Below are positions 3,959 to 16,879 of a stretch of DNA of 18,656 bases, piece after piece. Both the position numbers and the translations under genes were made by a program. Positions within the stretch are counted from its first letter, which is position 1, and each line of letters opens with the position of its first letter. The notes under the pieces were generated by a model. It worked only from the letters and a program-made list of their open reading frames with translations, was not told the origin of the DNA and did no database searches. Source of the stretch: an uncultured Bdellovibrionales bacterium (GTDB lineage Bacteria > Bdellovibrionota_C > UBA2361 > JBGSMV01); contig CAZVWV010000022.1 of the NCBI GenBank assembly GCA_964631745.1, positions 15,640-34,295 of the forward strand, read 5' to 3'.

Positions 3959-4573
3959 TTACATATAAGCAACGGATTCGCTATAGGAGGGTCTCTCCGC
4001 GAGCTCCTCCTCGGGAATCTCTGCTAAAGTTGCACCGGCAACCTCACGTTCCGGGGGCTGGGCAGATTGGCGAATGGCGCGCTGTATGGCAACGGCACTG
4101 CGAAGATTGAGCCCTTCGATGCGCGCAAAGCGTGTCTCAGATTCAGTCTCTGCCTGTCCCGGCGTGACGATATCGAGGGAATAGAGCCCCAGTATAAGAT
4201 GCTGAAAATCTCTAGCTAAACGCAGGGCGGTAATCTTATCTGTAGGAAAACTCCAGCGCTGCCTCAGCAGAACTCCCTTTGAAATTGAGAACGTATTGTG
4301 GTTCAGGTCGATTCTAAAGAAATGATGCTGCAAAGCCGCCCAAATAATAGCGCCGCTAAGCATAAGGAAGACAAAGCCAAGCAACACAAACTCTTCAAGC
4401 TCCAAGTTTCTAAAGAGATGCAGCTCACGCCCGAGAATCCCGTTTTCGACGCTTGTTAGACTGATTAGCGCTAGAATGGAGAATGCAAGCACGATCCATT
4501 TCAATGAACGTAATAGAATAAATCTTCTTGAGAGCCCAACCAAACGTCCGTTTCTGACTGCCATAATTCCCAT
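3959..4573 (-). CDS. Bacterial PH-domain (bPH_2, YdbS/YdbT-like) membrane protein
   Basis: Two predicted N-terminal TM helices, followed by a region resembling the bPH_2 fold (RQRWSFPTDKITALRLARDFQHLILGLYSLDIVTPG). Convergent with ydbL. Confidence 0.55.
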   Translation of the reverse strand: MGIMAVRNGRLVGLSRRFILLRSLKWIVLAFSILALISLTSVENGILGRELHLFRNLELEEFVLLGFVFLMLSGAIIWAALQHHFFRIDLNHNTFSISKGVLLRQRWSFPTDKITALRLARDFQHLILGLYSLDIVTPGQAETESETRFARIEGLNLRSAVAIQRAIRQSAQPPEREVAGATLAEIPEEELAERPSYSESVAYM

Positions 4574-4780
4574 ACAAATTACCTCACCACGGCGAATGGG
4601 ACGCTAAGGACACTTCGATATTCAAACTTTTCGGTTAGACCTGAGTTGGAATATGATGGTAATCAGGTAAGTGCCCACGCTATTGTTCCAGGCTTTAATT
4701 CAATATTTCTGGCTAAGCGAAGGTATACCGCTTTTCTGAATAGGACTCAGGAGGCTTGGATGGTCCCGTTTTGTCTTTTT

Positions 4781-4809
4781 TTGGCCTAACCTAGCGTTGG
4801 CTCTATAAT
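4781..4809 (+). promoter_or_regulatory. Near-consensus sigma70 promoter TTGGCC-N17-TATAAT directed toward the cassette array
   Basis: TTGGCC at 4781-4786, a 17-bp spacer, TATAAT at 4804-4809, and a T-rich tract immediately upstream (UP-like). Confidence 0.4.
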
Positions 4810-4864
4810 CAGGATGTTTATGAGCCAGGTAGCTATAATTGCCGTCGAATCAGCCATCCCCCAA

Positions 4865-4929
4865 TTGACCGATAAGTTCACTTATCGGTCAATATTAGAT
4901 GTTACTGCCGAAGTGAACTATCGGTCAAT
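4865..4929. promoter_or_regulatory. Operator-like repeats: a perfect 12-bp inverted repeat (TTGACCGATAAG-TTCA-CTTATCGGTCAA) plus a third half-site (AACTATCGGTCAAT)
   Basis: Palindrome at 4865-4892. A direct repeat of its right half lies at 4916-4929 (GTTCAC/GTGAAC, then TATCGGTCAAT). All lie 55-120 bp downstream of the promoter at 4781-4809. Confidence 0.35.
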
Positions 4930-4977
4930 TCAGGTATCTACTCCCTGCCGGAATCCCGATCACTCTCGCTATCTGGG

Positions 4978-5331
4978 TTAAAAATCATAGTCGTAAATTT
5001 GTCCAACGCTTCCGCGGCACGTGCCCTTCTTTCGGCCAGCCGCCTCTATACCTTCAGGATCAACTTTCCGCATATATTCCCAAACGACGAAGGGCGCAGA
5101 AGAAAGAACGCGAAAAATGAATGCGCCCATTTCGCGTATCTTGCGAATTGCCAAGGTAAAATTAAAGGATGGGATCCGTGCAAGGTATTTAAAACTGCCG
5201 TGCGACTTACTGATGCCGAACTGACCAGCGTTGTTCCCAGGATCGGCTTGCCTCTGAGCAATTCGAGTCGCTTCAAAAGGCGCCTTAATCAAGTTACCCT
5301 CCCCTACTTGAGAATCCACTGGTGCAAGCAC
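4978..5331 (-). CDS. Hypothetical ORF of uncertain coding status
   Basis: Longest ORF in the 4.6-5.5 kb gap. No family recognised. It overlaps plus-strand ORFs of similar length, so it may be non-coding remnant DNA. Confidence 0.15.
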   Translation of the reverse strand: MLAPVDSQVGEGNLIKAPFEATRIAQRQADPGNNAGQFGISKSHGSFKYLARIPSFNFTLAIRKIREMGAFIFRVLSSAPFVVWEYMRKVDPEGIEAAGRKKGTCRGSVGQIYDYDF

Positions 5332-5510
5332 CTCAAGCGGGCTTTTGGTTCCGGTCGGCCCACATTCCGCGACGTGAGTGTACCGATCTTTATTCCCCTT
5401 CCCAAATCGATTTGGATTGGGCTAGTACTTGTGGAGCCTTGGTCAAAACGCAGAAACCCATAGACTTTTTGCCAAACAACCCAAGCTTACAAATATGTTG
5501 AGATGGGCGG

Positions 5511-5609
5511 CATAACACCCGAATTCTCCCGTCAGCGGGGCGCGACCACTTTGGGTAATTTGGCTTGACTAAATGGCCCCGCTGCGGGAGATTCGGCAAC
5601 ACATTAGCT
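5511..5609 (+). repeat. attC-like site, family 1 copy A
   Basis: cATAACa ... CCGAaTTCTCCCGtCAGCGGGGC ... TTGACT ... GCCCCGCTGCGGGAGATTCGG ... cATTAGC. One of four ~95-bp copies (see 9575, 16385, 16779) that are about 80-90% identical. Imperfect dyad, with extra bases only in the 5' arm. Confidence 0.7.
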
Positions 5610-5629
5610 TGCTTGTATGTGATGGTATT

Positions 5630-6040
5630 ATGATGGCCCGAGACATTAGTAAAGTTTTTTGTATGACCGCAGCTCTTTCAAGCTTCGCGCTTGGAGTAAC
5701 CGGTTGTGATAACTTGAATCCTGGATCCGATCCTTCATTTTTGGGAAGAATAGGTACCGCTGACTTATATCTTAAGGAGATTGGCGGTAGGAGTTACTTA
5801 GTCGTAGACGACGATCCTGGCACTGCTTGCATAGAACATCACCCAAAATCAAAATTAGATAACATTGCCCACAGCTTTAGCAGTCAACTTGAGGGGAAGG
5901 CTGGCGACGTTGAGCTCTATACAGTTGAGGTCGATGGCACCAAATATCTTTTATCTCTAAACTACCTTACGAATCGCGGCCATGGATGTGATTTAATACT
6001 GATCCCAGAAGGGGCAAGTGGCGACACTCTCGCAAGATAA
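5630..6040 (+). CDS. Cassette-borne small lipoprotein, function unknown
   Basis: MMARDISKVFCMTAALSSFALGVTGC signal with lipobox. TAA stop at 6038-6040 is embedded in the GATAAC R'' box of the next attC. I take the ATG at 5630 because the track's ATG at 5573 lies inside attC-A. Confidence 0.5.
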   Translation: MMARDISKVFCMTAALSSFALGVTGCDNLNPGSDPSFLGRIGTADLYLKEIGGRSYLVVDDDPGTACIEHHPKSKLDNIAHSFSSQLEGKAGDVELYTVEVDGTKYLLSLNYLTNRGHGCDLILIPEGASGDTLAR

Positions 6041-6132
6041 CACCGGCCCGAAACTGACCGCGCCCCTTGAGTACTCGTGGCGCCATGATATTATATCTGG
6101 GGCGCGGCAGTTTTGGCCGCGAACCGTTATCC
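6035..6132 (+). repeat. attC-like site, family 4 copy a
   Basis: GATAACACCGGCCCGAAACTGACCGCGCCCC ... GGGGCGCGGCAGTTTTGGCCGCGAACCGTTATCC. About 85% identical to the copy at 9005-9101. Unpaired bases in the left arm. Confidence 0.65.
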
Positions 6133-6139
6133 ACTCATT

Positions 6140-6610
6140 ATGAACCAAACTAAAGCCGAGTATTACAAGAGCTTGCCGGCCAAGAGAATGGGCGCTGGCG
6201 TTCTTTTCTTTAATGATCAAAATGAACTCTTGCTCGTGCAACCAACCTACAAAGACACTTGGGAAATTCCAGGTGGCATTGTTGAACTAAGCGAATCACC
6301 GCGTGATGCAGTGCTCCGCGAAGTTCATGAGGAGCTAGGTTTAAAGATTGAACCTGAACTACTTAATTTTACATGCATTGAATATATGTCTGCGGGCAAA
6401 GAGATCTCGGAGTCCTTAATGTTTGTATTCTCGGGAGGGGTGCTTACTGAAAACATTATTAACCAGATTAACTTAGAATCTTCCGAACTCAAATCATTTA
6501 AGTTTGTTCCACCGAGTAGTATCACTGAATTTCTCGGACCAATTCTCGGGTCGAGAATCATAAAATGTCTTGAATCATCTAGTTGCTTTTACTCGGAAAA
6601 CAAATACTAG
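6140..6610 (+). CDS. NUDIX hydrolase
   Basis: Canonical Nudix box GGIVELSESPRDAVLREVHEELGL (Gx5Ex7REUxEExGU). I take the ATG at 6140 because the track's TTG at 6113 lies inside the attC. The TAG stop lies 5 nt before the next R''. Confidence 0.85.
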   Translation: MNQTKAEYYKSLPAKRMGAGVLFFNDQNELLLVQPTYKDTWEIPGGIVELSESPRDAVLREVHEELGLKIEPELLNFTCIEYMSAGKEISESLMFVFSGGVLTENIINQINLESSELKSFKFVPPSSITEFLGPILGSRIIKCLESSSCFYSENKY

Positions 6611-6613
6611 AGT

Positions 6614-6712
6614 GGATAACAAGCCGGTGCACTTGATGCGAAACTCTTGGCTTTTCCGGGTGTTTTGGGGCACTATTGGAGAGTTTCGCACAAGTGACCC
6701 TAAACTTTATCT
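6614..6712 (+). repeat. attC-like site, family 6
   Basis: GATAAC at 6615-6620. Arms GCACTTGaTGCGAAACTCTtGGC and GGAGAGTTTCGCACAAGTGA, with a ~26-nt loop. Variant R' is CTTTATC. Confidence 0.5.
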
Positions 6713-6721
6713 TCCTAACTT

Positions 6722-7276
6722 TTACTCACGCCCAAAACCGATCTTTCCCTTTCTCCCTCTCTGCATCGGTTCCTTCGGTTGAGCGTTAATTAACTCCCGA
6801 ATGCTATTGAACACCACTTTAAATTGGGCGTCATAACGCCGCTCTAGTTCGTCTAATCGTTTCGCGAACTCTTTGTTACTTGCTAGAATCTGCCGCATCC
6901 GGACAAACGCTCTGATGATCGCTATATTCACATGAATAGCTCTCTCACTATTCAAAACACTGGAAAGCATTGAAATTCCGTGCTCAGTGAACGCGTATGG
7001 CAGGTTTCGTCGGCCAGGCTTACCACTTGAGGTCACAATTTGTGACCGTAAAGCCGTGTATTCTTGGCTAGTTAGCTGAAACATGAAGTCCGCCGGGAAT
7101 CTTTCCACGTTTCGCTTTACAGCCTGTACCAGCGCCTTCGTTCTTACTTGGTAAAGTCTGGCTAGATCCTCGTCCAGCATTACCTTCTCACCTCTAATGA
7201 AGTAAATTGATTGCTCCAGCCGTTCAACAGGTATTACAGAACTGTTCTTTTTATTCATCGTTTCCCAAACTATCAT
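6722..7276 (-). CDS. ORF6N-domain (KilA-N-like / antirepressor-type DNA-binding) protein
   Basis: N-terminal IYFIRGEKVMLDEDLARLYQVRTKALVQAVKRNVERFPADFMFQLT is the ORF6N signature. The ORF is inverted within its cassette and sits next to the family-2 attC. Confidence 0.75.
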   Translation of the reverse strand: MIVWETMNKKNSSVIPVERLEQSIYFIRGEKVMLDEDLARLYQVRTKALVQAVKRNVERFPADFMFQLTSQEYTALRSQIVTSSGKPGRRNLPYAFTEHGISMLSSVLNSERAIHVNIAIIRAFVRMRQILASNKEFAKRLDELERRYDAQFKVVFNSIRELINAQPKEPMQRGRKGKIGFGRE

Positions 7277-7302
7277 GCCATTATCCGCTTAGACAACGCG
7301 GA

Positions 7303-7381
7303 AGATAACCATTGAATTCACGATATTTCGCGCTTTAGAATCAGTTTGGCGCGAAAATCGTGATTCAACAGAACGTTGGAC
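7303..7381 (+). repeat. attC-like site, family 2 copy a
   Basis: GATAACC ATTGAATTCACGATATTTCGCGC ... GGCGCGAAAATCGTGATTCAACA GAACGTTGGAC. The R' GTTGGAC is a perfect GTTRRRY. Confidence 0.65.
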
Positions 7382-7436
7382 TGAGCCGCGCAGTAGCGCG
7401 GAGGATCCTAAGCGAGAATTTGAATCGTAAGAGTAA

Positions 7437-7464
7437 GACCGGCACCGACCGGTCATTTTTTTTT
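7437..7464 (+). terminator. Rho-independent terminator at the 5' end of a cassette
   Basis: GACCGG-CACCGA-CCGGTC hairpin followed by a T9 run. It lies 60 nt after the cassette boundary within a conserved leader (7382-7465). A weaker copy lies at 14433-14515. Confidence 0.6.
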
Positions 7465-7645
7465 GCGAAAAGCGTGAGGATGTGTGCCGGTGGTTCAAGT
7501 CCCATCGCCGCCCCGACCGCCCGAACCTAGTGCCGAACCTAGTGTAGCTGAAAAGTAGAAAAGAATCTTGGCGAAAGTTCCATCCCTGATGGTGTAAAAG
7601 AGACCTGACTAAAGAAACTCATTTACAACCATCAGGGAGGAATTC

Positions 7646-8233
7646 ATGAACGATAAAAAAAGTACGCCACTTAGAGAGAAAATGAAAGCGGATTTAATGC
7701 TTCGGAATTATTCTAAGCCTTCTGAAGAGTTATATCTGTTTCATGTCAGGCGCTTTGCACAACACTATCACAAATCCCCAGGACATCTTGGACTAGACGA
7801 GATCCGGAGCTACCTGACGTACCTGCGCCAAGAAGCCAACGTATCGCAGTCATCGTATAAGCAAACGGTGGCAGCGCTCAAAGACGGCAACGTCTCTTTC
7901 TCCTACAAAGATTACAGAACTAACGAAAAGAAATTGATGACGCTGCCTGCTGTAGAGTTTATTCGGAGATTTCTGCTGCATGTGCTTCCAAACAAGTTCG
8001 TGAGGGTGCGCTACTACGGGTTCCTGACCAGGGCAAAGAAACTTGCCGCTCTGAGCACTATTAGAGAGGCGTTGGAGACCCATTCTCAAGCCCCGCCACC
8101 AAAACCTGCCACTACGCCCCATAGACACTGCTGCCCGGCCTGCAAGCTCGGGAAATTGGTCCACATTGGCCAAGTCCCACGCTGTTCGATTCCAGGCACT
8201 AGTCCACCAGCGCAACATACAGCCCTTTCTTAG
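7646..8233 (+). pseudogene. Degenerate chimeric ORF: tyrosine-recombinase (IntI/Xer-type) SAM-like N-terminal domain joined to the C-terminal segment of an IS91-family (Y2 HUH) transposase
   Basis: Residues 8-80 (LREKMKADLMLRNYSKPSEELYLFHVRRFAQHYH...VSQSSYKQTVAAL) fit the recombinase N-terminal SAM-like domain. Residues about 100-175 (EFIRRFLLHVLPNKFVRVRYYGFLTRAKK ... CCPACKLGKL) fit the Y2-transposase C-terminus with its terminal Zn motif. No catalytic domain sits between them. Confidence 0.45.
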
Positions 8234-8267
8234 CCAATCGCTCTTAGCTATACTAACTTCAATCGTT

Positions 8268-8394
8268 GGAGGCTGCGCGGCCCAGTCCAACGGGGTGTCG
8301 AGCCGCGATTCTCAGGCGAGAACGCTGCGGCAAGTTGGCACTCCTTGGCTGATAATCGCGGCCCAACACTAAACATTATCCCCTTTAGGCAGCC
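8268..8394 (+). repeat. attC-like site, family 3 copy 1; it has an extended outer palindrome
   Basis: GCGCGGCCCA GTCCAAC ... GAGCCGCGATTCTCAGGCGA ... GGCTGATAATCGCGGCCC AACACTAAACATTATCC. About 80% identical to 14966-15086. The 10 nt outside R'' are the reverse complement of the 10 nt that follow R' at the cassette start (7382-7391). Confidence 0.55.
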
Positions 8395-8663
8395 AGTTTT
8401 CTCTTGAGAACCTTAATCTCATTTTCAATCTGTTCAAGTCTCGAGGCAGCCGTCACTTTATCCGACATGCTTTCACTCAGAGTCCTGTTAATTAGCCGCT
8501 GATAAGGAATTCCACTCTCATCAGCCATAGCTCTTAGCTTTGCAAGAGTTTCGGCATTGATATTGATTGTAATTTTTATGCTCTTCTGGCGAGCCATCGC
8601 AGAACGTATTCGCTTGGTTTCAGCCCTATCGATTTTAAGATTTTTTAGGTTTGGTTTTTTCAT
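8385..8663 (-). CDS. brnA: BrnA antitoxin (CopG/RHH-type)
   Basis: MKKPNLKNLKIDRAETKRIRSAMARQKSIKITININAETLAKLRAMADESGIPYQRLIN. Starts at the internal Met of the track ORF and overlaps the end of brnT by about 29 nt. Confidence 0.7.
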   Translation of the reverse strand: MKKPNLKNLKIDRAETKRIRSAMARQKSIKITININAETLAKLRAMADESGIPYQRLINRTLSESMSDKVTAASRLEQIENEIKVLKRKLAA

Positions 8664-8922
8664 TGTATATTCTCCTAAACTCTCGCCATTCGGCCGACCC
8701 ATAAATTCGTACTTTTCCTTCTCGCCTTGTAAACCGAGTCGTAAGTATCTTCCCCGAACTCGATCTCCCCAACCAATAAAAACGCTCCTCATCCTGAGAA
8801 TGCTTATCATCTCTGATGGCAAATCCATCAGGATCGGAAAAAGACTCCGCGGCTTCGGAAAAACTCACCTTGTGCTTCCTAAGGTTTTCTTTAGCTTTGC
8901 CGGCGTCCCACTCGAAATCCAT
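8635..8922 (-). CDS. brnT: BrnT toxin (DUF497 ribonuclease family)
   Basis: MDFEWDAGKAKENLRKHKVSFSEAAESFSDP...DDKHSQDEERFYWLGRSSSGKILTTRFTRREGKVRIYGSAEW matches the BrnT pattern (FEWD..K...N..KHGVSF.EA, HS..EERF). The toxin lies upstream of the antitoxin, as in BrnTA. Confidence 0.8.
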   Translation of the reverse strand: MDFEWDAGKAKENLRKHKVSFSEAAESFSDPDGFAIRDDKHSQDEERFYWLGRSSSGKILTTRFTRREGKVRIYGSAEWREFRRIYNEKTKPKKS

Positions 8923-9004
8923 ATAAGCATGATTACCATACCTATGTGTATTTTACCATATAAACTGTAAGTTGGTGAAGATTTATTTTTTGGTTCCACG
9001 CAGG

Positions 9005-9101
9005 GGATAACACCGACCTTAAACTGACCGCGCCCATTGATTAGGGTTGCCAGTATGGTACCATTATGGGGCGCGGCAGTTTAGGCCGCAAAACGTTAGG
9101 C
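9005..9101 (+). repeat. attC-like site, family 4 copy b
   Basis: GATAACACCGACCTTAAACTGACCGCGCCC ... GGGGCGCGGCAGTTTAGGCCGCAAAACGTTAGGC. Perfect R' GTTAGGC. Extra T and A in the left arm. Confidence 0.7.
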
Positions 9102-9120
9102 AGCCTACGGAGAGAAACTT

Positions 9121-9580
9121 ATGCGAATGGTCCTGGACGAGAATTTCAAAATATCCATCGAGGGACGGAATGATTTCGATGGACGAATCCTATTTCTGAG
9201 CAAGAACTCTGGAATTGCGAGGATTGGCAACAAGGGCTGGGATTTTCGCGATGCAATTTTAGGCAGTGGTGAGGATTTTGCCATCGAGCTAATGGCGAAT
9301 GGGCAAGCAGCAGCTACCTTATCGTTTGAAAGAAATTCAGGCCATTCGATCGCGGTCCCTAGAAAGGGCGATAAAAATTGAGAATTTTCAATTGAACCTC
9401 GACCCAAACACTGAAGAGTGGATTCTTGAAAGTAAACAACACAAGCATGGATTCGGACAGCGAATTGGTTCTCGGATCGTCCTTAACATTAACGACGAGC
9501 ATTTAGTTCAGGAAATGGCGGAGGTAGTGGCGTTGAGTTTTATTGCTATTCAAGGCTGGGGCGGAATGAAGGCTGCCTAA
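9121..9580 (+). pseudogene. Unknown cassette gene apparently split by a +1 frameshift at an A5 run
   Basis: ORFs 9121..9381 and 9299..9580 are in frames 1 and 2. They overlap around GGGCGATAAAAATTGAG (about 9368-9375). Joined they give a protein of about 152 aa. The TAA stop at 9578-9580 is embedded in the CCTAAC R'' box. Confidence 0.45.
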
Positions 9581-9675
9581 CATCCGAGTGCTCCCGACAG
9601 CGGGGCCGCGGTCTGCTTTAGTAGTTTGTATTGACTTGAAGGCCCCGCTGCGGGAGATTCGGCATCACGTTGGAC
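9575..9675 (+). repeat. attC-like site, family 1 copy B
   Basis: GCCTAAC at 9575-9581 is a perfect RYYYAAC. CCGAGTgCTCCCGACAGCGGGGCCGCG ... TTGACTTGAAGGCCCCGCTGCGGGAGATTCGGCATCAC GTTGGAC. Perfect R' at 9669-9675. Confidence 0.8.
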
Positions 9676-9750
9676 TGCAAGTATTTTTGATTAGGAAGTC
9701 TGCCCATGATACACTTTTTATTATTAATTTAACATAATAGAGGTATTATT

Positions 9751-10134
9751 ATGAACTCACCACAAATGGAGTTTGCAGGAAATATCGGCGGATTACAAAA
9801 CTTTCTTAGCCAGTGTTCATCGGCAGCTTTGGCGATGGCAATACAACCAGAAATAACAAAAATTATGCAAAATCAATCCTTGGATTCCAATGCACCTTTA
9901 ACAGTGGATCTACTAAACACCTTGAGGCAGAGCTTATACAGTCGAAATGACGATCCAGATGCAAGACAAACAGATATTTTAATGATACTGGCCGATGCCT
10001 TGCGTGGAAAGGGCGTTTCGTCAGGGAATCCTATCGAAGATAGACTGCGTTTTGTAGAAATACTTCAAGATCAATTACAACGAAACGGCAGAGTCAATTT
10101 TCAGAGAGCACTCGCAGAGTCTATAGCAAGATAG
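9751..10134 (+). CDS. Hypothetical cassette protein (127 aa)
   Basis: ATG preceded by a GAGG-like Shine-Dalgarno within an AT-rich leader. No family recognised. Followed by a candidate attC at 10148-10235. Confidence 0.4.
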   Translation: MNSPQMEFAGNIGGLQNFLSQCSSAALAMAIQPEITKIMQNQSLDSNAPLTVDLLNTLRQSLYSRNDDPDARQTDILMILADALRGKGVSSGNPIEDRLRFVEILQDQLQRNGRVNFQRALAESIAR

Positions 10135-10147
10135 TGCAGGCTAACAA

Positions 10148-10235
10148 GTGGGCGCACTGGAGGCAAAATCCTGGGGCTTTCTTAGGAATTTTGTGACTGT
10201 TATGATGATTTTGCCCCAGTGGTTCTAAACGTTAA
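10148..10235 (+). repeat. Candidate attC-like site, family 9
   Basis: GGCTAAC ... GCGCACTGGaGGC / GCCCCAGTGGTTC imperfect dyad, with one extra A in the left arm. R' is AAACGTTAACC. Confidence 0.4.
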
Positions 10236-10256
10236 CCCCTTTTAGCAGTAATACCC
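10235..10256 (+). repeat. 22-bp direct copy of the tip of the Tn3-family IRR (ACCCCTTTTAGCAGTAATACCC)
   Basis: Identical to 12822-12843 and in the same orientation. It starts 5 nt after a cassette boundary and 13 nt before the tnpA ATG. Confidence 0.5.
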
Positions 10257-10268
10257 CTCCTTGACCAA

Positions 10269-12743
10269 TTGATGGAACCAAATGACGCGAGTTCGGCGAA
10301 GCTCACACGGTATCAGCTTACGCTCATGAAGAAATTCGCTCACTCCATTGCGCCATCTGCAATAAAGGAAAATGTCGAGCAGCTTGTAGCGCTGCGTGAA
10401 CTTTACCTTGAGATTCGAGCAGTATTAGAAGAGCTTGATCTTACCCGCGAAGGCATTCGTTACTTTGCGACCTACGTTTTAAAATCGCCTACTTGGAGGC
10501 TTTCTGCAAGAGAGGACCATGACCGATACTTGCACATGATAACTTTTGTTGCTCATCAGTACTATCAACTTCAAGATATCCTTGTCGATGTTTTGCTCAG
10601 CTCTGTAACGGCAATTAACAACGGCGCACGTCGTGAGCACAAAGATGGTTGCTACGAACAGCGGTCTCAAAAAAATAGCTCCCTTGCAAATGTGATTGAA
10701 ACAGTTGAGAAACTTCTCTCTGGCTATGCTGAGATTCACGATATCTTGCACAAAAAGGGACTACACTCGGATAAAAAAATAGAGCTTATCAAGGCTCTAC
10801 TTGATGAAAATGAAGCTGCTATCCGTAACGCCAGAAAGCATGTCATTAACCTCAAACAGGCATCTCAGCAGGTGGTTGAGAATGATTTCTACGCAATTCT
10901 GGAATCAAAGTCGGTCAAACTTCAAAATAGAGTCGCAGGGATTGTAAAAACGCTTGAGTTTAGATCTGACTGCTCTGATAAGCTGCTCTACAGCGCCATA
11001 TGTCACTATAGAGAGCACGCTACCCTCACTGAATCTGCACCATACGATTTCTTAAGTCCGGTTGAGCAGAATCTCTTGCACAGAGACGGTGGAAAGTTTC
11101 GAGTTCCGCTCTATAAAGTGCTGCTCTTTGGAAGAATCGCTGAAGCAATTCGGGCCGGGACCCTTAACTTAGACCACTCATACAAGTATCGCACTTTAGA
11201 AGAGTATCTAATCGCGCGGTGCGCTTGGGATGAGGGAAAAGATGTCCTCATAGAGCGCGCAAGCCTCCAAGTTGTTGAGAACTGTCCTAAAGTGCTTACC
11301 GATCTTCAAACCCGCCTAGCGCAATATTATCAGCTTACAAATCAGCGAATTTTAGATGGCGGCAATGAATTTGTTTCGGTCAAAAGTACCGGCGCTTATA
11401 CCGTGCAAACCCCGCCAGTAGCCGAGAAGATGGCTCCTGGCCTGCCTGAGTACTTTCCAGAGACTAAATTTATTTCTCTGCTTGAAATCCTTTCCACAAC
11501 CAATCAAGTAACAAATTTTCTAGCAGAATTTAAACGCTCAAAATTAAAGTATAATCGCGCACGACCAAGCGATCGGTCCTTTTTTGCCGGTTTACTCGGA
11601 TTTGGGTGCGGCATCGGTATAAAAAGAATCGCTCAAATCTCAAACCTCATCGACGAAGATGAGCTTGAAAGAACCGTAAACTGGCATTTTTCTTTAGATA
11701 ATGTTGAAGCTGCCAACGATAGAATTTTAGCCTTCATGGATAAGCTTGATCTCCCCTCGGTTTATCTCCAAGACCCAGAGTGGCGGCACACCTCAAGTGA
11801 CGGCCAAAAGGTAGAGGTGGCCGTGCCTTCGCTTAATGCCAATTACTCGTTTAAATATTTCGGCCAAGGTAAGGGCGTGAGCGTCTATAGCTTCATTGAT
11901 GAGAGACATTTTCTCTTTCACTCAACGGTAATTAGCTCAGCGGAACGGGAGGCCGCATATGTAATCGACGGCTTGATGCACAATGATGTTGTACAGAGCG
12001 ATATTCATTCAACTGATACTCACGGCTATACTGAAGTAATATTTGGCGCGACGCATCTTTTGGGATTCATGTTCGCCCCTCGAATCAAGAGTTTAGGGCG
12101 ACAACACCTCTATACCTTTCCTGGCAATACAAAAAAGCTGTACAAAGAAATGAAATACCCTATCCTGCCAGATGGCGTTATCAACATTCAATTAATCGCA
12201 GATAACTGGGATGAAATTCTGCGATTCGTGGCTACCATCAAACTAAAAGAAACCCCTGCTTCGCAGCTATTTAGACGACTTAACTCATACTCAAAATCGC
12301 ACCCTTTATGGGACGCTCTCAAAGAGTTTGGAAAAATTATAAAATCGATTTTCATCCTTCACTACATCGACGATCTCAATCTTCGCCAGGCAGTTGAGAA
12401 GCAGATGAACAAGATCGAAAGTGCTCAGAAGTTTTCAAACGCCGTGGCGTTCGGATCACAAGAATTTAGGCAGGCAGACCGAGAGGAGCAAAATATTGTC
12501 GCTGCTTGTCGCAGGCTTATTAAGAACGCCATCATCTGTTGGAACTACCTATACCTTTCGCAAAAAATTGTAGATGCGCCGAGCCCAGCGCAGAAAAATG
12601 AAATTATTGATGCCGTTCAAAACGGCTCAGTGGTCGCATGGCGGCACATTAATTTCTACGGGGAGTATGATTTCTCAGATGAAAAGCTCAGGGATTCTGT
12701 TGGAATTACTGCCCCTTCGGTTAGGAGTCTTAGAGTGGCTTGA
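10269..12743 (+). mobile_element. tnpA: Tn3-family transposase TnpA, N-terminally truncated relative to full-length (~1000 aa) TnpA
   Basis: 824 aa. Family motifs: RYLHMITFVAHQYYQLQDILVDVLL; SSDGQKVEV; HSTDTHGYTEVIFGATHLLGFMFAPRIKSLGRQHLYTF (DDE region). The first ~170 aa, the N-terminal DNA-binding region, are absent. No resolvase or res site nearby. Confidence 0.85.
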
Positions 12744-12805
12744 AATTCAAAAATGGGAGGGTCGTTTTTGAGTTAAGTTGCTGATCTGGCATAAGAATTC
12801 GGAAA

Positions 12806-12843
12806 TTCTGTGGCGGTTTTCACCCCTTTTAGCAGTAATACCC
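12806..12843 (-). mobile_element. Tn3-family 38-bp terminal inverted repeat (IRR)
   Basis: Read from the tip it is GGGTATTACTGCTAAAAGGGGTGAAAACCGCCACAGAA. It shares GGG at the tip, GCT at 11-13 and GAAAAC at 23-28 with the Tn3 IR (GGGGTCTGACGCTCAGTGGAACGAAAACTCACGTTAAG). It lies 63 bp past the tnpA stop. Confidence 0.55.
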
Positions 12844-12968
12844 AACGTTCGCTAGCGCAGCTTCTTTGCTTTTCAGTACGCTCGAAAGCATCGCTACTCC
12901 CTGTTCCGAGAAGGAGTACGGAGGAGTCCTACGGCCGCCCCAAGATCTTGATATGCCAAATTGGCATT

Positions 12969-13172
12969 TCAAGTCGGCAAGTTCTTGATTTGACAGCCGA
13001 AACATAAAATCCCCGGGAATCGATCTTTGTTTCGCCTAACCGCACGATTTAAATGCCCCGTTTCGACACAATAGAGTTCAGCCAAATCGGAATCTAGCAT
13101 CACGCGCTGCCCTCTGATCAGATAAATCAGGCTAGAAATCTCTTTTTTGATAACTGCGCTGGTTTTTGGCAT
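12969..13172 (-). pseudogene. Truncated ORF6N-domain gene; paralog of 6722..7276
   Basis: [38 protein letters not shown] aligns to ORF6N copy 1 up to 'RFP', then diverges and terminates at 67 aa. Its family-2 attC is retained upstream. Confidence 0.6.
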
Positions 13173-13233
13173 ATATATGTGAGTTTACCTTTAGTCAATG
13201 GAGGCGCCAAGGTCATATTGCAACAACGGTGCT

Positions 13234-13330
13234 GGCTAACAATTGAATTCACGAGATTTCGCGCCACTACCTTTAGTAGTTGCTTTGACATCCAGTTGGC
13301 GCGAAACTCCTGATTCAACATCACATTATG
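13234..13330 (+). repeat. attC-like site, family 2 copy b
   Basis: GGCTAAC AATTGAATTCACGAGATTTCGCGCC ... GGCGCGAAACTCCTGATTCAACA TCACATTATG. Variant R' is CATTATG. Confidence 0.6.
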
Positions 13331-13362
13331 CGCCCGCTCCACTGCTCATAAATTTAGCTGTT

Positions 13363-13725
13363 ATGCTTAATTCCACCTCACGAAAAAATCTAGGTAAAAT
13401 ATTCTTATGTTTGGTCATTATTTGGGTGGCAAAAGAAGGATATGAGTGGACTCGTTGTTTCTGCAGTACGGCAACGGATACGCGGGTGCTGATTGCGCAG
13501 TGCACCGAAGTTAAAAGAGAACTTCAACTTTATAAAGACAAACATGGTGCTTGGCCTAGGTCCTTGTTCGATGCGGGTATTTGGCCCATTAGCTATTTTG
13601 GAATTTGGCGTTATCGCCCGTCCTCCCTAGATTTTGATGGCCCAATGTTGGAAATTGGTTGCAGCGGCTGGCATATAGTAGGAACCTCGCCTGATGAAAA
13701 TGGTGATTGCGGAGCTTGGGATTGA
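13363..13725 (+). CDS. Hypothetical small protein with one N-terminal TM helix (weak pseudopilin-like motif)
   Basis: IFLCLVIIWVA hydrophobic helix; AQCTEVKRELQLYKDKHGAWPRSL loosely resembles a GspG/pilin segment. I take the ATG at 13363 because the track's start lies inside the attC. No Shine-Dalgarno. Confidence 0.35.
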   Translation: MLNSTSRKNLGKIFLCLVIIWVAKEGYEWTRCFCSTATDTRVLIAQCTEVKRELQLYKDKHGAWPRSLFDAGIWPISYFGIWRYRPSSLDFDGPMLEIGCSGWHIVGTSPDENGDCGAWD

Positions 13726-13732
13726 GTGCTCG

Positions 13733-13832
13733 CATAACCACCGCGTTGAAGGGAAACGCGACTCGCGAGCGGATTTCGAAATTTTAAGCGTTTGAGTGGG
13801 GCGCGTCCCCATCAGGCGGCAACCCATTATGC
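13733..13832 (+). repeat. attC-like site, family 8
   Basis: GCATAACC ... TGAAGGGAAACGCGaCtCgCG / GAGTGGGGCGCGTCCCCATCA imperfect dyad. Variant R' CATTATGCGC, the same 10-mer as at 13323-13332. Confidence 0.45.
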
Positions 13833-13833
13833 G

Positions 13834-14043
13834 CTAGCGCTTCCTGAGCTTGTTAGGATCTCGGCGGCAGTGGAAAACTGATACGACCACGATATGTTCG
13901 GTTTCTATCGAGAAAAATACCCCGAAGGGAAACTTTTTTAGCAAACATCGGCGAAGATCGTCGAAAGCAACTGAATATAACATAGGAGTTCTTGCAATCT
14001 TTGCCAAAGCAACATCAAGCGACCGAATAAATTCCGATCCCAA
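13834..14043 (-). CDS. ParE/RelE-family toxin, short (possibly N-terminally truncated)
   Basis: ...DDLRRCLLKKFPFGVFFSIETEHIVVVSVFHCRRDPNK matches the ParE C-terminal core. The ORF begins at TTG with an in-frame stop just upstream. It leaves an 80-bp gap to the antitoxin and lacks the usual ~25-aa N-terminal helix. Confidence 0.6.
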   Translation of the reverse strand: MGSEFIRSLDVALAKIARTPMLYSVAFDDLRRCLLKKFPFGVFFSIETEHIVVVSVFHCRRDPNKLRKR

Positions 14044-14123
14044 ACCATGTGCTTGCGTTTCCTACCAACGCGCAGCGGCTTCTAGTTCAGCAGAAGCCTT
14101 TTGGGTAAATCTAATTTCCACAA

Positions 14124-14345
14124 TTAAAGGCTGATTTTCTGCTTGAGATCCGACCATGAAATGCCGGTATCGGGGTCTCTCCTATAATGCGCAAGTCTAG
14201 CGCGCAATTCCACTTTTTGGTCTTCGCTGAGCTCAAGTGAATCTGGGAGCTGCTCTATGCTGTCCCAAATATCCTGAACAAGTTGAATTCGCTCTGAAAC
14301 GCTTAAGCCAAGAATCTCTTCTAGAAGTTCCTTTTCTTTGGGCAT
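14124..14345 (-). CDS. Antitoxin, 'putative addiction module component' (TIGR02574-like), partner of the ParE-like toxin
   Basis: LSVSERIQLVQDIWDSIEQLPDSLELSEDQKVELRARLAHYRRDPDTGISWSDLKQKI fits the LSxEERLxLIxxLWDSL...AxLDRRLAxYxxDP pattern of this antitoxin family. Located upstream of the toxin. Confidence 0.65.
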   Translation of the reverse strand: MPKEKELLEEILGLSVSERIQLVQDIWDSIEQLPDSLELSEDQKVELRARLAHYRRDPDTGISWSDLKQKISL

Positions 14346-14364
14346 CTGAGTATTGTATAGCTAA

Positions 14365-14432
14365 GCGCATAACAACGCAATCAATAGACATTTTGCTTCG
14401 CAAAATGCTATTGATTGCGCGATACGTTGGAC
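14365..14432 (+). repeat. Short attC-like site (~68 bp), family 7
   Basis: GCATAAC AACGCAATCAATAGaCATTTTGC ttcg GCAAAATGCTATTGATTGCGCGAT ACGTTGGAC. Perfect R' GTTGGAC. Extra base in the left arm. Confidence 0.7.
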
Positions 14433-14515
14433 TGAGCCGCGCTGGCGCGCGGAGGGGTGTAATTGAAACATTTATGGTTGAATTGGAATGATTCGTAAGA
14501 GACGGTCATTTTTTG
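14433..14515 (+). repeat. Conserved cassette-start leader (second copy) with CCGCGC-N4-GCGCGG hairpin and a degenerate terminator
   Basis: TGAGCCGCGCTGGCGCGCGGAGG...GAATTGGAATGATTCGTAAGAGACGGTCATTTTTTG, against 7382-7465 TGAGCCGCGCAGTAGCGCGGAGG...GAATTTGAATCGTAAGAGTAAGACCGGCACCGACCGGTCATTTTTTTTT. Confidence 0.6.
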
Positions 14516-14965
14516 TATACGAGATTAGGTGAAACGCCACTTCATGGCGCTGAAGGCGTCTTGCCTGACTTTTAATTGCGAATAGCGAGAAGCCTACTAA
14601 TTTCACTTGATATCTTTTGAAGAGCTGGCAGCATTGCTTCCCAAAAAGAGAAGCGGGCCTGTCGCGACTGCTTACTTACGTGCAGTCAGGAATGGAGATT
14701 CCTTTTTTACCGCCAGGGATGGCGGCGCCGCTTTAGACATAAACTGAGAGCGCGAATTGTGCTCAGACTCGGTGGGTAGGCCGAAGGCTTTTTGAAAGAA
14801 AAGCTATATTTCTTGGGGTGGGTTGTGCCTAATTGCAAAACTGAGAGATTTTTTATTACGTTAAATCAAATAGTTATTACTCTCCACATAAAAAACGCTG
14901 ACCAATCCCCATAGGCATAATCAGGCGTTGATTAACTATCTGGTTCCTTCAATAATCAAACCATT

Positions 14966-15086
14966 GTAGGCAGCGCGGCACAGTCCAACCGGGTGTCGAG
15001 CCGCGCTTCTCAGGCGAAGTTGCGGCACTGACTTCTCCCGTTTTGGCTGAGAACCGCGGCCCAACACTAAACATTAGGCAGACAGA
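14966..15086 (+). repeat. attC-like site, family 3 copy 2
   Basis: GCGCGGCACA GTCCAAC CGGGTGTCGAGCCGCGCTTCTCAGGCGA ... GGCTGAGAACCGCGGCCC AACACTAAACATTAGGCAG. Confidence 0.55.
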
Positions 15087-15091
15087 GCATT

Positions 15092-15883
15092 ATGCGTTGC
15101 GATTTTCCTATCCTTGAATACGATTCGGACCAGACAGCCCGTATCGAACCCACTGCTGTAGTGCCGGATGGCACGCTGCCTGAGATATGTATCATCTCGT
15201 TTTTCGCCGATGCTATTGAAAGGTTCGTCTCCAACGCCAACGCGACTGTGGCCTGTCGTTTTGACACGATGATAAGCTCGCATCCCGTCTATGAATTCTC
15301 CTACAAGGAGCGGCGGTTGGCCCTACTGCCAGCCGGGCTCGGTGGACCCCTTTCTGTTGGTCTTCTCGAGCACGCTATTGCTATGGGCTCGCGGTATTTT
15401 GTGGTGTGTGGCGCAGCGGGTGTTCTCAACAAAGAGATTGCAGCGGGACACCTGATTTTGCCAACAGCGGCGATACGGGATGAAGGAACGTCGTACCACT
15501 ACCTCCCGCCAGCTCGCGAAGTTGTGCCAAGTGCCGCAGCAGTAGCGGCTATTGGGAAAGTACTTGAAGATGCTAATATCCCGGTCGTTCGCGGAAAAAC
15601 ATGGACCACGGATGCATACTTTCGGGAAACGCGACGTAAGATTGAGTTGCGCCAGTCCGAGGACTGTATTTGTGTCGAAATGGAGGCGGCTGCCCTGTTT
15701 TCCGTCGCGGTGTTTCGCGGGGTTGATCTCGGCTATATCCTTTACGGAGGAGATTCCGTTGCCGGTGTTTGGGACCCACGAGAAGAGTTTGACCGTGCTG
15801 TGGTTCGCGAGAGGCTGATTCGCCTTTCCTGCGAAGCATGCTGTTTACTAGCCGATCAAACAAACGTTCTGAGGCATAAGTGA
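15092..15883 (+). CDS. Nucleoside phosphorylase-I family protein (PNP/UDP/MTAN-type phosphorylase domain)
   Basis: VEMEAAALFSVA matches the family's VEMEAAA[IL] active-site motif. The upstream segment LALLPAGLGGPLSVGLLEHAIAMGSRYFVVCGAAGVL...ILPTAAIRDEGTSYHY aligns with the DeoD/MTAN substrate-binding core. The ATG lies inside CATTATGCG. Confidence 0.7.
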   Translation: MRCDFPILEYDSDQTARIEPTAVVPDGTLPEICIISFFADAIERFVSNANATVACRFDTMISSHPVYEFSYKERRLALLPAGLGGPLSVGLLEHAIAMGSRYFVVCGAAGVLNKEIAAGHLILPTAAIRDEGTSYHYLPPAREVVPSAAAVAAIGKVLEDANIPVVRGKTWTTDAYFRETRRKIELRQSEDCICVEMEAAALFSVAVFRGVDLGYILYGGDSVAGVWDPREEFDRAVVRERLIRLSCEACCLLADQTNVLRHK

Positions 15884-15888
15884 GGGCT

Positions 15889-15983
15889 GCCTAACAATTG
15901 GAGCGAGCGGAGGAAAGGCCGCGAATGAAATTGATGATTTGTAGATTTGAAGTGGCCTTTCCCCGCTCCTCCTCGCCATTATC
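15889..15983 (+). repeat. attC-like site, family 5
   Basis: GCCTAAC (perfect RYYYAAC) AATTGGAGCGAGCGGaGGAAAGGCC ... GGCCTTTCCCCGCTCCTCCTCGC CATTATC. Confidence 0.55.
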
Positions 15984-16012
15984 CCGCCCTTTCGTTTGCA
16001 ACTTGTAATTTA

Positions 16013-16390
16013 ATGAATCAGGCCTTAACCCCCTATAGAGATGTCTTTCTGCGGTTGTTGAATGCTCTCCTGTTTCTGAGCTTAGTGGGTTTTCATGTCA
16101 TGCCAAAGTTATCGCTTATTATTATCGGCAATCAGCAACCTTCCGTTTTTCACATCGTCGCATTCGTAGTTTCAATTACGTCGGGATGTATTGCAGCGAA
16201 GTGGATAATAAAGCGGTTCTCCTTTGTTGAGCATTTAATTGTTTCATTTTGCCTTCTCCCACTTACAATTTGTGTGGCGGTAAGTTTACGGGAGGGTTTA
16301 ATATGGATTCTTATATTAGCTCTTTTCTCGCTTTTTAGTTATCTTCCTTACCGAAGAATCCAAAAAACAAGACCACCAAGCGCGGGATAA
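16013..16390 (+). CDS. Small integral membrane protein (about 4 TM helices), unknown function
   Basis: 125 aa with four hydrophobic segments. The TAA stop at 16388-16390 is embedded in the GATAAC R'' of attC-C. I take the ATG at 16013 because the track's start lies inside the preceding attC. Confidence 0.45.
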   Translation: MNQALTPYRDVFLRLLNALLFLSLVGFHVMPKLSLIIIGNQQPSVFHIVAFVVSITSGCIAAKWIIKRFSFVEHLIVSFCLLPLTICVAVSLREGLIWILILALFSLFSYLPYRRIQKTRPPSAG

Positions 16391-16485
16391 CCACCGAGTA
16401 CTCCCGATAGCGAGGCCGCGTTCTGCTTTGGTAATTTGAGTTGACTTGGAGGCCCCGCTGCGGGAGACTCGGCAAAACGTTAACC
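16385..16485 (+). repeat. attC-like site, family 1 copy C
   Basis: GATAACCA CCGAGTaCTCCCGAtAGCGaGGCCGCG ... TTGACTTGGAGGCCCCGCTGCGGGAGACTCGGCAAAAC GTTAACC. Confidence 0.75.
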
Positions 16486-16507
16486 CTCATTTAAAAATTC
16501 ATAGCAG

Positions 16508-16777
16508 ATGGGTATTGCAACCACTCTAATTATCTACGTCGCGCTCTTTCTCGTCATACGCCAGTCAGTTTTTATTATTGGCGAGAATCAGCGCGGAGTA
16601 ATTGTCCGGCTAGGGCGTTTCGAAAGAATTCATTATCCCGGGTTGCTTATTGTGGTTCCTTTCATGGACCGGGTTCACAAGATAGACTTGCCTGCACAAG
16701 TACCTGGTTGGGAGAAACTTTCTAAGGAGCAGCTTGATGCTAAGGTTCAGGAAATTGCTTTGAGCAAGATAGAATGA
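16508..16777 (+). CDS. SPFH/band-7 domain N-terminal fragment (89 aa)
   Basis: TM helix, then IIGENQRGVIVRLGRFERIHYPGLLIVVPFMDRVHKIDL, the start of the SPFH (stomatin/HflK/C) fold. Far shorter than functional SPFH proteins. The TGA stop lies 2 nt before the R'' of attC-D. Confidence 0.55.
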   Translation: MGIATTLIIYVALFLVIRQSVFIIGENQRGVIVRLGRFERIHYPGLLIVVPFMDRVHKIDLPAQVPGWEKLSKEQLDAKVQEIALSKIE

Positions 16778-16778
16778 G

Positions 16779-16879
16779 GGTTAACCACCGAGTTCTCCCG
16801 ACAGCAGGGCCACGATCATTAGTGGTAGTTCGAATTGACTAAGAAGCCCCGCTGCGGGAGACTCGGCAAAACGTTATGT
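16779..16879 (+). repeat. attC-like site, family 1 copy D (last attC of the array)
   Basis: GGTTAACCA CCGAGTtCTCCCGACAGCaGGGCCaCG ... TTGACTAAGAAGCCCCGCTGCGGGAGACTCGGCAAAAC GTTATGT. The R' overlaps the pepD stop codon. Confidence 0.75.

Follow-up and report, generated by a model that had tools for sequence, protein, structure and literature searches.

An array of attC recombination sites lies in an 18,656-nt stretch of DNA from an uncultured Bdellovibrionales bacterium (contig CAZVWV010000022.1, positions 15,640 to 34,295; this whole stretch is called the window). The array is a CALIN (attC clusters for which no integron integrase is present) in type, with a feature for which we found no report in natural arrays, a varied crossover base; no specific report of natural non-GTT attC cores was found in the literature searched. 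The array spans 5510–16879 and holds 15 attC sites (named attC A to P, with the letter I skipped), all on the + strand and in one orientation, which bound 14 complete cassettes. At the first base of their R' core, G1, eight sites have G, six have A (A, E, J, K, M, and N), one has T (C), and none has C. In integron recombination sites, the GTT/AAC triplet counts as the single invariant sequence, and detection tools have it built in. Among the explanations weighed below, we favor, with a probability of approximately 0.5, one in which the sites would form cleavable but mutually incompatible classes that freeze most of the array.

Anatomy and exact boundaries of the attC sites

The window shows 5.5 kb before the array head and 1.8 kb beyond the last attC. 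Both strands were scanned for AAC...NTT pairs with complementary arms, together with direct reading, and this arm-complementarity scan recovered the same 15 sites that a preliminary description of the DNA had reported in 5511–16879. The sites are as follows.

attC A, 5510..5609, + strand: family 1; R'' GCATAAC, R' ATTAGCT; crossover base 5603 is A; two bulges 6 bp apart on the R'' arm
attC B, 6035..6132, + strand: family 2; R' GTTATCC; G1 at 6126
attC C, 6614..6712, + strand: R'' GGATAAC, R' TTTATCT; crossover base 6706 is T
attC D, 7303..7381, + strand: family 4, short loop; R' GTTGGAC; G1 at 7375
attC E, 8285..8381, + strand: family 3, symmetric stem without bulges; R'' GTCCAAC, R' ATTATCC; crossover base 8375 is A
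attC F, 9005..9101, + strand: family 2; R' GTTAGGC; G1 at 9095
attC G, 9575..9675, + strand: family 1; R' GTTGGAC; G1 at 9669
attC H, 10139..10237, + strand: present R' GTTAACC, split by a Tn3-family relic; G1 at 10231
attC J, 13234..13331, + strand: family 4; R' ATTATGC; crossover base 13325 is A
attC K, 13732..13832, + strand: singleton with irregular stem; R' ATTATGC; crossover base 13826 is A
attC L, 14367..14432, + strand: singleton of 66 nt with one bulge; R' GTTGGAC; G1 at 14426
attC M, 14983..15079, + strand: family 3; R' ATTAGGC; crossover base 15073 is A
attC N, 15889..15984, + strand: singleton; R' ATTATCC; crossover base 15978 is A; L' arm ends ...CTCCTCGCC
attC O, 16385..16485, + strand: family 1; R' GTTAACC; G1 at 16479
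attC P, 16779..16879, + strand: family 1, last site; R' GTTATGT; overlaps the convergent M20 dipeptidase stop codon (16874–16879)

The site lengths of 66–101 nt lie within the attC range of about 57–141 nt. Folded with DNA parameters, the 15 sites have energies of −12.5 to −26 kcal/mol, and all but the irregular K form long imperfect stems. Two single-base bulges about 6 bp apart are present on the AAC-proximal arm of 10 sites, while H and L have one bulge and E and M, whose stems are symmetric, have none. These bulges on the AAC-proximal arm give the whole array a single polarity, which agrees with the direction of most cassette genes. The inverse core has AAC in 15/15 sites, with R'' 7-mers that fit RYYYAAC or nearly so. 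Similarly, the R' core has TT in 15/15 sites and is TTRRRY-like in most, with G at its first position in 8/15.

Global (gapped) alignment sorts the sites into 8–9 families, in line with the approximately nine proposed in the preliminary description. Family 1 (A, G, O, and P) has an identity of 75–81% gapped and 64–82% ungapped, lower than the 80–90% given there, and family 2 consists of B and F (75%) rather than three members. Families 3 (E and M, 82%) and 4 (D and J, 67%, both linked to ORF6N genes) have two members each, as described. C and H are a weak pair (68%), and K, L, and N are singletons. With a largest family of 4/15 sites, the array lacks the homogeneity of large sedentary integrons, and the suggestion of it is weak.

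Several further features of the sites were noted. In family 3 (8262–8381 and 14960–15079), two positions conserved in the stem form G.T wobbles when the bottom strand folds and A.C mismatches when the top strand does. The family also has an outer stem of 18 bp, formed with a conserved cassette-start module, TTGGACTGAGCCGCGC..GCGCGGAGG (7376–7405 and 14427–14456), followed by a terminator-like CGGTCATTTTTT; the two family-3 cassettes have their ends in common and unrelated interiors. The inverted repeats 7353–7393/8273–8313 and 14426–14444/14971–14989 (19–41 nt) were considered as the ends of an inserted element or as inverted attC sites and proved to be ordinary complementarity between the cassette start and R'', which amounts to 18 bp in family 3. 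Behind sites D and L, we suspected a group IIC-attC intron or an IS1111-attC element; Rfam gave no group II intron signal and, over the whole window at E<=1, no match at all, attC itself having no Rfam family.

The position of the crossover base was fixed by the cassette starts. At 11/14 junctions, cassette start and next R'' are perfect reverse complements over 7–12 nt, and at the remaining three they agree at 8–9/10 positions (A to B and G to H) or 6/10 positions (H to J). Summed over the junctions, the perfect complementarity run between cassette start and next R'' is 108 nt, compared with a permutation mean of 51 and a maximum of 88 (20,000 permutations, p<5e-5). A perfectly matching TTRRRY follows 5/6 A sites and the T site, whereas after site A 3/4 variable positions match. 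For instance, the cassette start TTATCTTCC after attC C is the reverse complement of the R''(D) flank over 9 nt. Because of this next-cassette complementarity at each variant core, the A or T sits exactly at the G1 position.

Mis-called boundaries, a reversed polarity, or an assembly error, with true cores of GTT, would remove the variation altogether. The opposite strand of every site does start with GTT, since R'' is AAC, and no support for this explanation was found beyond that. In contrast, the surroundings of every variant core are free of GTT to a distance of 10 nt, where the preliminary description had allowed for a canonical core a few nucleotides away, so the boundaries are right. Moreover, each A or T is followed by 6–12 nt that match the next R'', the arm proximal to AAC holds the extra bases, as expected for the standard polarity, and most cassette genes lie on the + strand, with starts directly behind R'. 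Two independent Logan assemblies reproduce the sites base for base (L in L002, and M and N in L002 and L003), the Logan pieces are identical to the window, and the organism is the same as that of the Logan assemblies of SRR12762304 and SRR12762305. We therefore regard an error of this kind as extremely improbable. Furthermore, all cassette intervals are of single-gene size except H to J, which contains a 2.6-kb Tn3 relic, and since no cassette has double length, no degenerate site has been overlooked.

The same complementarity bears on the 10-mer CATTATGCGC, for which three occurrences had been listed. Its copies at J (13324–13333) and K (13825–13834) were confirmed, and they recur because both downstream cassettes end in R'' ...GCGCATAAC or ...TCGCATAAC. 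A 9-mer resembling it at the start of the PNP gene (15088–15096) is start-codon context that is not kept in a 77%-identical homologue (GGAATGCAC, contig L006), and it is thus due to chance.

Substitutions at the crossover base and their origin

Across the array, six other core positions (the AAC of R'', the C at −1, and the TT) are unchanged (0/90), compared with changes in 7/15 at G1 (Fisher p=2.8e-7). In particular, G-to-A at G1 occurs in 6/15 sites, compared with C-to-T in 0/30 at the two core C positions (p=6e-4). The families have diverged by 18–25% overall while AAC and TT are unchanged. Judged from these sequences, the other core positions are held constant while G1 has changed at about the neutral rate or faster. 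The replacement of the first G by A in some cores, noted in the preliminary description, is thus real, but its list of five is to be read as six CATTA cores (CATTATC twice, at E and N) plus one CTTTA core (C). Viewed on the recombined bottom strand, where G1 is the C of 5'-AA^C-3', the changes are C to T six times and C to A once. All natural variants alter R' only and keep the AAC of R'', which leaves a T.G wobble in the A sites and an A.G mismatch in site C.

The direction of change was read from homologous cassettes. Outside its own 34,295-bp contig, the M20 dipeptidase next to the array has only matches at <=30% identity, and with no close relative in the collections there are no orthologous junctions to compare, whereas homologous cassettes are comparable. 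A search with the family-1 pattern gave one chance match (Micromonospora) in the genome collection and 0 matches in the metagenome collection, and a two-arm pattern gave three chance matches there. The look-up of BrnT gave no match, and the comparison of the ORF6N cassette with plasmids gave a weak match to a Legionella gene only. Two cassettes have informative homologues in metagenome contigs.

ORF6N cassette, 6707..7375, + strand: gene 6722–7276 on the minus strand; the same cassette occurs in other metagenome contigs
PNP-like nucleoside phosphorylase cassette, 15074..15978, + strand: flanked by ATT sites M and N

In L011, the ORF6N cassette is found again with 98% nucleotide identity in the gene, and in L010 with 82%; in both, the homology begins exactly at TTATCT and stops at G1 of the family-4 attC. 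The PNP cassette recurs in L006 (2790–3800) as a decayed relic of 77% identity, with homology starting at TTAGGCAG. As the homology breaks exactly at the crossover in both cases, site-specific recombination probably moved the ORF6N and PNP cassettes. At the upstream junction, a G in L010 and L011 stands against the T of site C. Within family 4, D and the L010 copy carry G and J carries A, and within family 1, sites G, O, and P carry G and site A carries A. L010 also contains a right arm like that of K, with the end CAAAAC-GTTATCT. On these comparisons, the seven variants are derived point substitutions and not a property of the cassette families.

In total, 12 junctions were read in the Logan/metagenome contigs L006, L010, L011, and L015–L019, among which ten are GTT, one has T (in the decayed L006), and one reads GACG-ATTCTGC. 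The latter, at the ORF6N junction of L011, may represent an A at G1 in another array; its TTCTGC matches the next R'' GCAGAAC. Additionally, family 4 shows a compensatory change between subfamilies (GAT/ATC versus GAG/CTC), which indicates that pairing is selected in the wider cassette pool.

These contigs also provided some separate observations. The ORF6N cassette is a mosaic with respect to L011 (1–810) and L010 (700–1498), as the window gene is 98% identical to L011 and the attC arms match L010, whose gene is 82% identical. L011, with 810 nt and a 55-nt terminal overlap, is either a circle or a tandem, and it holds the ORF6N cassette and a 63-nt mini-cassette with its own short attC. The PNP relic of L006 lies in a higher-GC genome; one TGG codon has become a TGA stop, the attC stems to either side are decayed, and the upstream G1 is T. 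L006 also carries a neat 60-nt attC (1095–1154, GTTGGGC) after an HEPN_AbiU2 gene.

Derived changes of this type invite an explanation by neutral decay of a dead array, in which the integrase was lost, G:C-to-A:T transitions accumulated, and their concentration at G1 is luck or ascertainment. The G:C-to-A:T transition is the commonest spontaneous mutation, and homologous junctions elsewhere are mostly GTT. The window contains no intI or attI, and there are several pseudogenes and transposon relics in the cassettes. Moreover, no intact gene is found in 4/6 cassettes ending in ATT, compared with 2–3/8 ending in GTT, as raw counts. However, all seven changes occupy one of seven core positions, and the two core C positions, with equal mutational chance, have none. 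The stems and bulges are preserved, unlike those of the decayed attC beside the PNP relic in L006, no double-length cassette hints at a missed degenerate site, and AAC and TT were never altered although the families have diverged. With all seven changes at one base and AAC, TT, the −1 C, stems, and bulges kept, undirected decay does not fit, and we consider this explanation somewhat unlikely. Of the old, decaying array proposed in the preliminary description, the age is borne out by the missing intI and attI, a ParE stop, an ORF6N frameshift, and IS91 and Tn3 relics, whereas the undirected decay is not, given changes at one base. Age is evident in the array, but its position-specific core changes have the look of altered compatibility and not of erosion.

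A mutational bias at G1 was considered in two forms. CpG depletion is absent genome-wide, with observed/expected ratios of 1.04 for CpG and 1.03 for ACGT, which rules out deamination specific to methyl-CpG or ACGT. Alternatively, the scissile C of the bottom strand might itself be prone to deamination, either at the edge of the unpaired hairpin spacer or exposed in integrase complexes. The changes are indeed recurrent, independent, of one type, and at one position, and in family 1, 3/4 arm substitutions are also top-strand G-to-A (a bottom-strand T.G pair). Such site-specific hypermutation should alter the unpaired C in spacers and loops at least as often, which is not seen; moreover, the array shows no strand skew (G 0.239, C 0.237), and the −1 C beside the spacer is intact in 15/15 sites. 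We know of no described mechanism for hypermutation at the scissile C, and this origin appears very unlikely.

Predicted compatibility classes

As reported for the integrase IntI1, the bottom strand is cleaved between the A and C of AAC, G1 is free of base-specific contacts in the crystal structure, and substrates with G1 changed to A or T are cleaved in vitro (Frumerie et al. 2010, PMC2811028). Relative to the wild type, recombination was 3.1e-3 for attC-ATT with attI-GTT and 3.4e-3 for attC-GTT with attI-ATT, a loss of approximately 300-fold, while the same change in both partners gave 1.0 for ATT with ATT and 0.044 for TTT with TTT (PMC2811028). Among the single-partner mismatches, ATT was the mildest (3e-3), compared with 1.5e-4 to 1.5e-3 for CTT and at most 2e-4 for TTT, and single changes of T2 or T3 in one partner had little effect (PMC2811028). 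The authors concluded that the only role of G1 is to dock the strand that is exchanged, and that its conservation keeps integrons compatible with one another; GTT is described as conserved in all integrons characterized up to 2010 (PMC2811028).

The engineered G1 mutants of that study (attC-aadA7, attC-VCRd, and attI1) concern the same position and the same bases, A and T, as the variants found here, which, unlike the mutants, stand beside GTT sites in one array. For the window sites, they predict that cleavage is retained and that like recombines with like. What recognition and cleavage require is preserved, the AAC of R'' and the TT of R' in all 15 sites and the stems and R''-arm bulges in most. 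By analogy with IntI1, ATT sites would still be bound and cleaved, and would recombine normally with ATT and approximately 300-fold worse with GTT; the lone TTT site would perform worse still. The array would then be a mosaic of incompatible site classes.

For excision of single cassettes, five have matched flanks: G with G in the cassettes that end at G, H, and P, and A with A in those that end at K and N. The other nine have unlike flanks, and their excision should be at least 100-fold rarer, which would effectively lock them. In particular, the PNP cassette is predicted to be fully excisable under IntI1 rules, and for the two A-with-A cassettes the following junctions would be expected.

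Excised PNP cassette (M with N): L' arm of N (...CTCCTCGCC) + A + TTAGGCAGAC
Circular K-bounded cassette: L' arm of K + A + TTATGCGCCC

The preference for A could also follow from the folded bottom strand. G-to-A is the only substitution at G1 that keeps the pair, as a T.G wobble with the invariant R'' G, which would explain the dominance of A. This fits both the tally (six A, one T, no C) and the unvarying C of R''. With a GTT partner, the incoming C would form a perfect pair with the R'' G, and the outgoing T would wobble on the G of the partner.

The same wobble allows a more permissive explanation, in which the cognate integrase of this lineage accepts either C or T at the docking position, by way of a G.T wobble with the invariant G of R'' or attI, so that GTT and ATT are interchangeable, the array is fully active, and the core is RTT. 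Consistent with such relaxed specificity, only the wobble-compatible transition recurs, with the R'' C kept in 15/15 sites, and both family-3 copies carry A despite different cassettes and contexts. The possible A at G1 after the 98%-identical ORF6N cassette of L011 would also agree, as would the finding that ATT is the mildest single-partner mismatch with IntI1 (PMC2811028). However, IntI1 loses approximately 300-fold with one ATT partner and GTT was conserved throughout the integrons known in 2010 (PMC2811028), the junctions of the wider pool are mostly GTT, and the window offers no integrase to examine. Relaxed specificity of this kind therefore seems quite unlikely. The relaxed or unusual integrase put forward in the preliminary description is not needed for the variants, since IntI1 does not read G1 and only the match between partners counts (PMC2811028), and its observation of unusual cores stands. 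A broader formulation, in which either orthogonal GTT and ATT classes would partition the excisable or exchangeable cassettes or the integrase would take the bottom-strand T by G.T wobble docking (core RTT), is in our estimate unlikely.

Several points weigh against the incompatible classes that we favor. First, the IntI1 figures come from attC mutants altered on both arms, in which a Watson–Crick pair (T-A) is kept, whereas the window sites are altered in R' only, with the AAC of R'' kept and a T.G wobble, and their activity is predicted by analogy. Second, no integrase that would still recombine the sites is visible within the window. Third, adjacent unlike sites are not in excess (9/14, p=0.45), and there is no signature of selection for locking; such selection, which predicts an excess of unlike neighbors, was rejected on this count. 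Fourth, 3/6 A sites (E, M, and K) are structurally atypical or irregular. Finally, the excess of non-G bases over the junctions of other contigs (7/15 versus 2/12) is not significant (p=0.22).

Cargo, flanks, and relation to known integrons

Protein families were assigned with Pfam and NCBIfam on the open reading frames (ORFs) of the window, and in 4571–5520 also on six-frame translations. The cassette genes comprise a lipoprotein-like ORF, a NUDIX hydrolase, two ORF6N genes, the second of which is frameshifted, a BrnT/BrnA pair, a ParE-like toxin with its antitoxin, a PNP/UDP-type phosphorylase, a Band_7 fragment, and several small ORFs without a family match. The ParE-like gene (13834–14123, minus strand) has an in-frame TAG after ...AAARW; the called ORF begins at an internal TTG and matches profile positions 28–89 only, while the antitoxin gene (14124–14345) is intact. 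The array is flanked by a gene for a bPH_2 membrane protein and the M20 dipeptidase gene (16874–18556, minus strand), and the overlap between the R' of attC P and the dipeptidase stop codon marks the distal end of the array. Two transposon relics and the proximal flank complete the features.

IS91-family (insertion sequence) relic ORF, 7646..8233, + strand: 195 amino acids, in the cassette D to E
Tn3-family relic, 10233..12843, + strand: N-terminally truncated tnpA 10269–12743, 824 amino acids, DDE_Tnp_Tn3 E=1.6e-114; in the R' of attC H
Proximal flank, 4580..5509, no strand: no intI, no attI, and no cognate start for the cassette ending at attC A

The 195-amino-acid ORF joins a tyrosine-recombinase SAM-like N-terminus (residues 9–79) and, from an IS91 Y2 transposase, the C-terminal third (residues 73–167). 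It resembles the product of an internal deletion in one of those IS91-family elements that carry an integrase gene of their own. The Tn3 relic (10227–12849) has 25-nt repeats at 10232–10256 and 12819–12843 that are direct and not inverted, an end at 12806–12843 resembling a right inverted repeat (IRR), and AACGTT on both outer flanks. Based on these sequences, it seems to have inserted into ACGTT of the attC H core. The original R' of attC H may have been GTTCGCT (12846–12852), and the true start of the following cassette may be TTCGCTAGC at 12847, which agrees with the reverse complement of the R''(J) flank at 10/14 positions.

No intI was found with Pfam and NCBIfam in any ORF of the window or in the six-frame translations of 4571–5520. 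The only integrase-like piece is the 79-amino-acid N-terminus of the IS91 relic ORF, which scores 32 bits against a cut-off of 265 bits (TIGR02249). On the minus strand at approximately 5330–5400, a stretch resembling 'YTHV...SPLE' was considered as an intI remnant and discarded, as it has no Pfam or NCBIfam support at E<=10. Upstream of the array in the window, there is neither an attI nor a start TTATGC... cognate to R''(A), and the lack of a cognate start for the attC A cassette indicates that the array is truncated at its head. Within this gene-poor array head, the half-site TTGACCGATAAG occurs three times in 4856–4937, twice as a palindrome with 12-bp arms and once 44 nt away; the TTGACCGATAAG triplet looks like an operator. 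Farther upstream, a GC-rich 60-nt hairpin (171–230) lies between GCAGAAC and GTTGGCC, which are attC-like cores, within an ORF 5.3 kb before the array, and this resemblance is probably due to chance.

Among known systems, the array resembles CALIN, defined by at least two attC sites without intI within approximately 4 kb (Cury et al. 2016, PMC4889954); it has 15 sites and no intI as far as the window extends. As in CALIN, its cassettes are unrelated to resistance cassettes, and it belongs to the upper tail of size, since 6.6% of CALIN have more than 10 attC sites; the description of CALIN makes no statement on core variation (PMC4889954). A complete integron has an adjacent intI and a matching attI, neither of which is found in the window. 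Similar to sedentary chromosomal integrons such as the Vibrio cholerae superintegron, the array is chromosomal, with housekeeping-type neighbors, toxin–antitoxin cassettes (BrnT/BrnA and ParE-like), many cassettes of unknown function, and one repeated attC family. In contrast to them, its attC homogeneity is low (4/15 sites at 75–81%), no integrase or attI is in view, and approximately half of the cores are noncanonical. In the inactivated integrons of Xanthomonas described by Gillings et al. in 2005, decay reportedly affects mainly intI. The likeness to these lies in an old array with decayed components and IS activity; unlike them, the window has no detectable intI remnant, and the attC changes are confined to one base.

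An array in which approximately half of the sites are ATT and the other determinants are intact is a natural test bed for the laboratory prediction that G1 is changeable if the partners match. It makes testable whether a wobble in a single arm permits recombination, whether one base can partition or freeze arrays, and by what route cassettes that no longer move come to be fixed in chromosomes. Even if the variants are no more than dead sites, the array remains of use for annotation: a G at this position should not be demanded in boundary calls, and G1 may be lost before the other bases. If either GTT/ATT classes or an RTT core is the true reading, the array would be the first natural counterpart of the specificity changes engineered by Frumerie et al. 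(2010), and the 'absolutely conserved' GTT would be a convention of compatibility rather than a mechanistic need.

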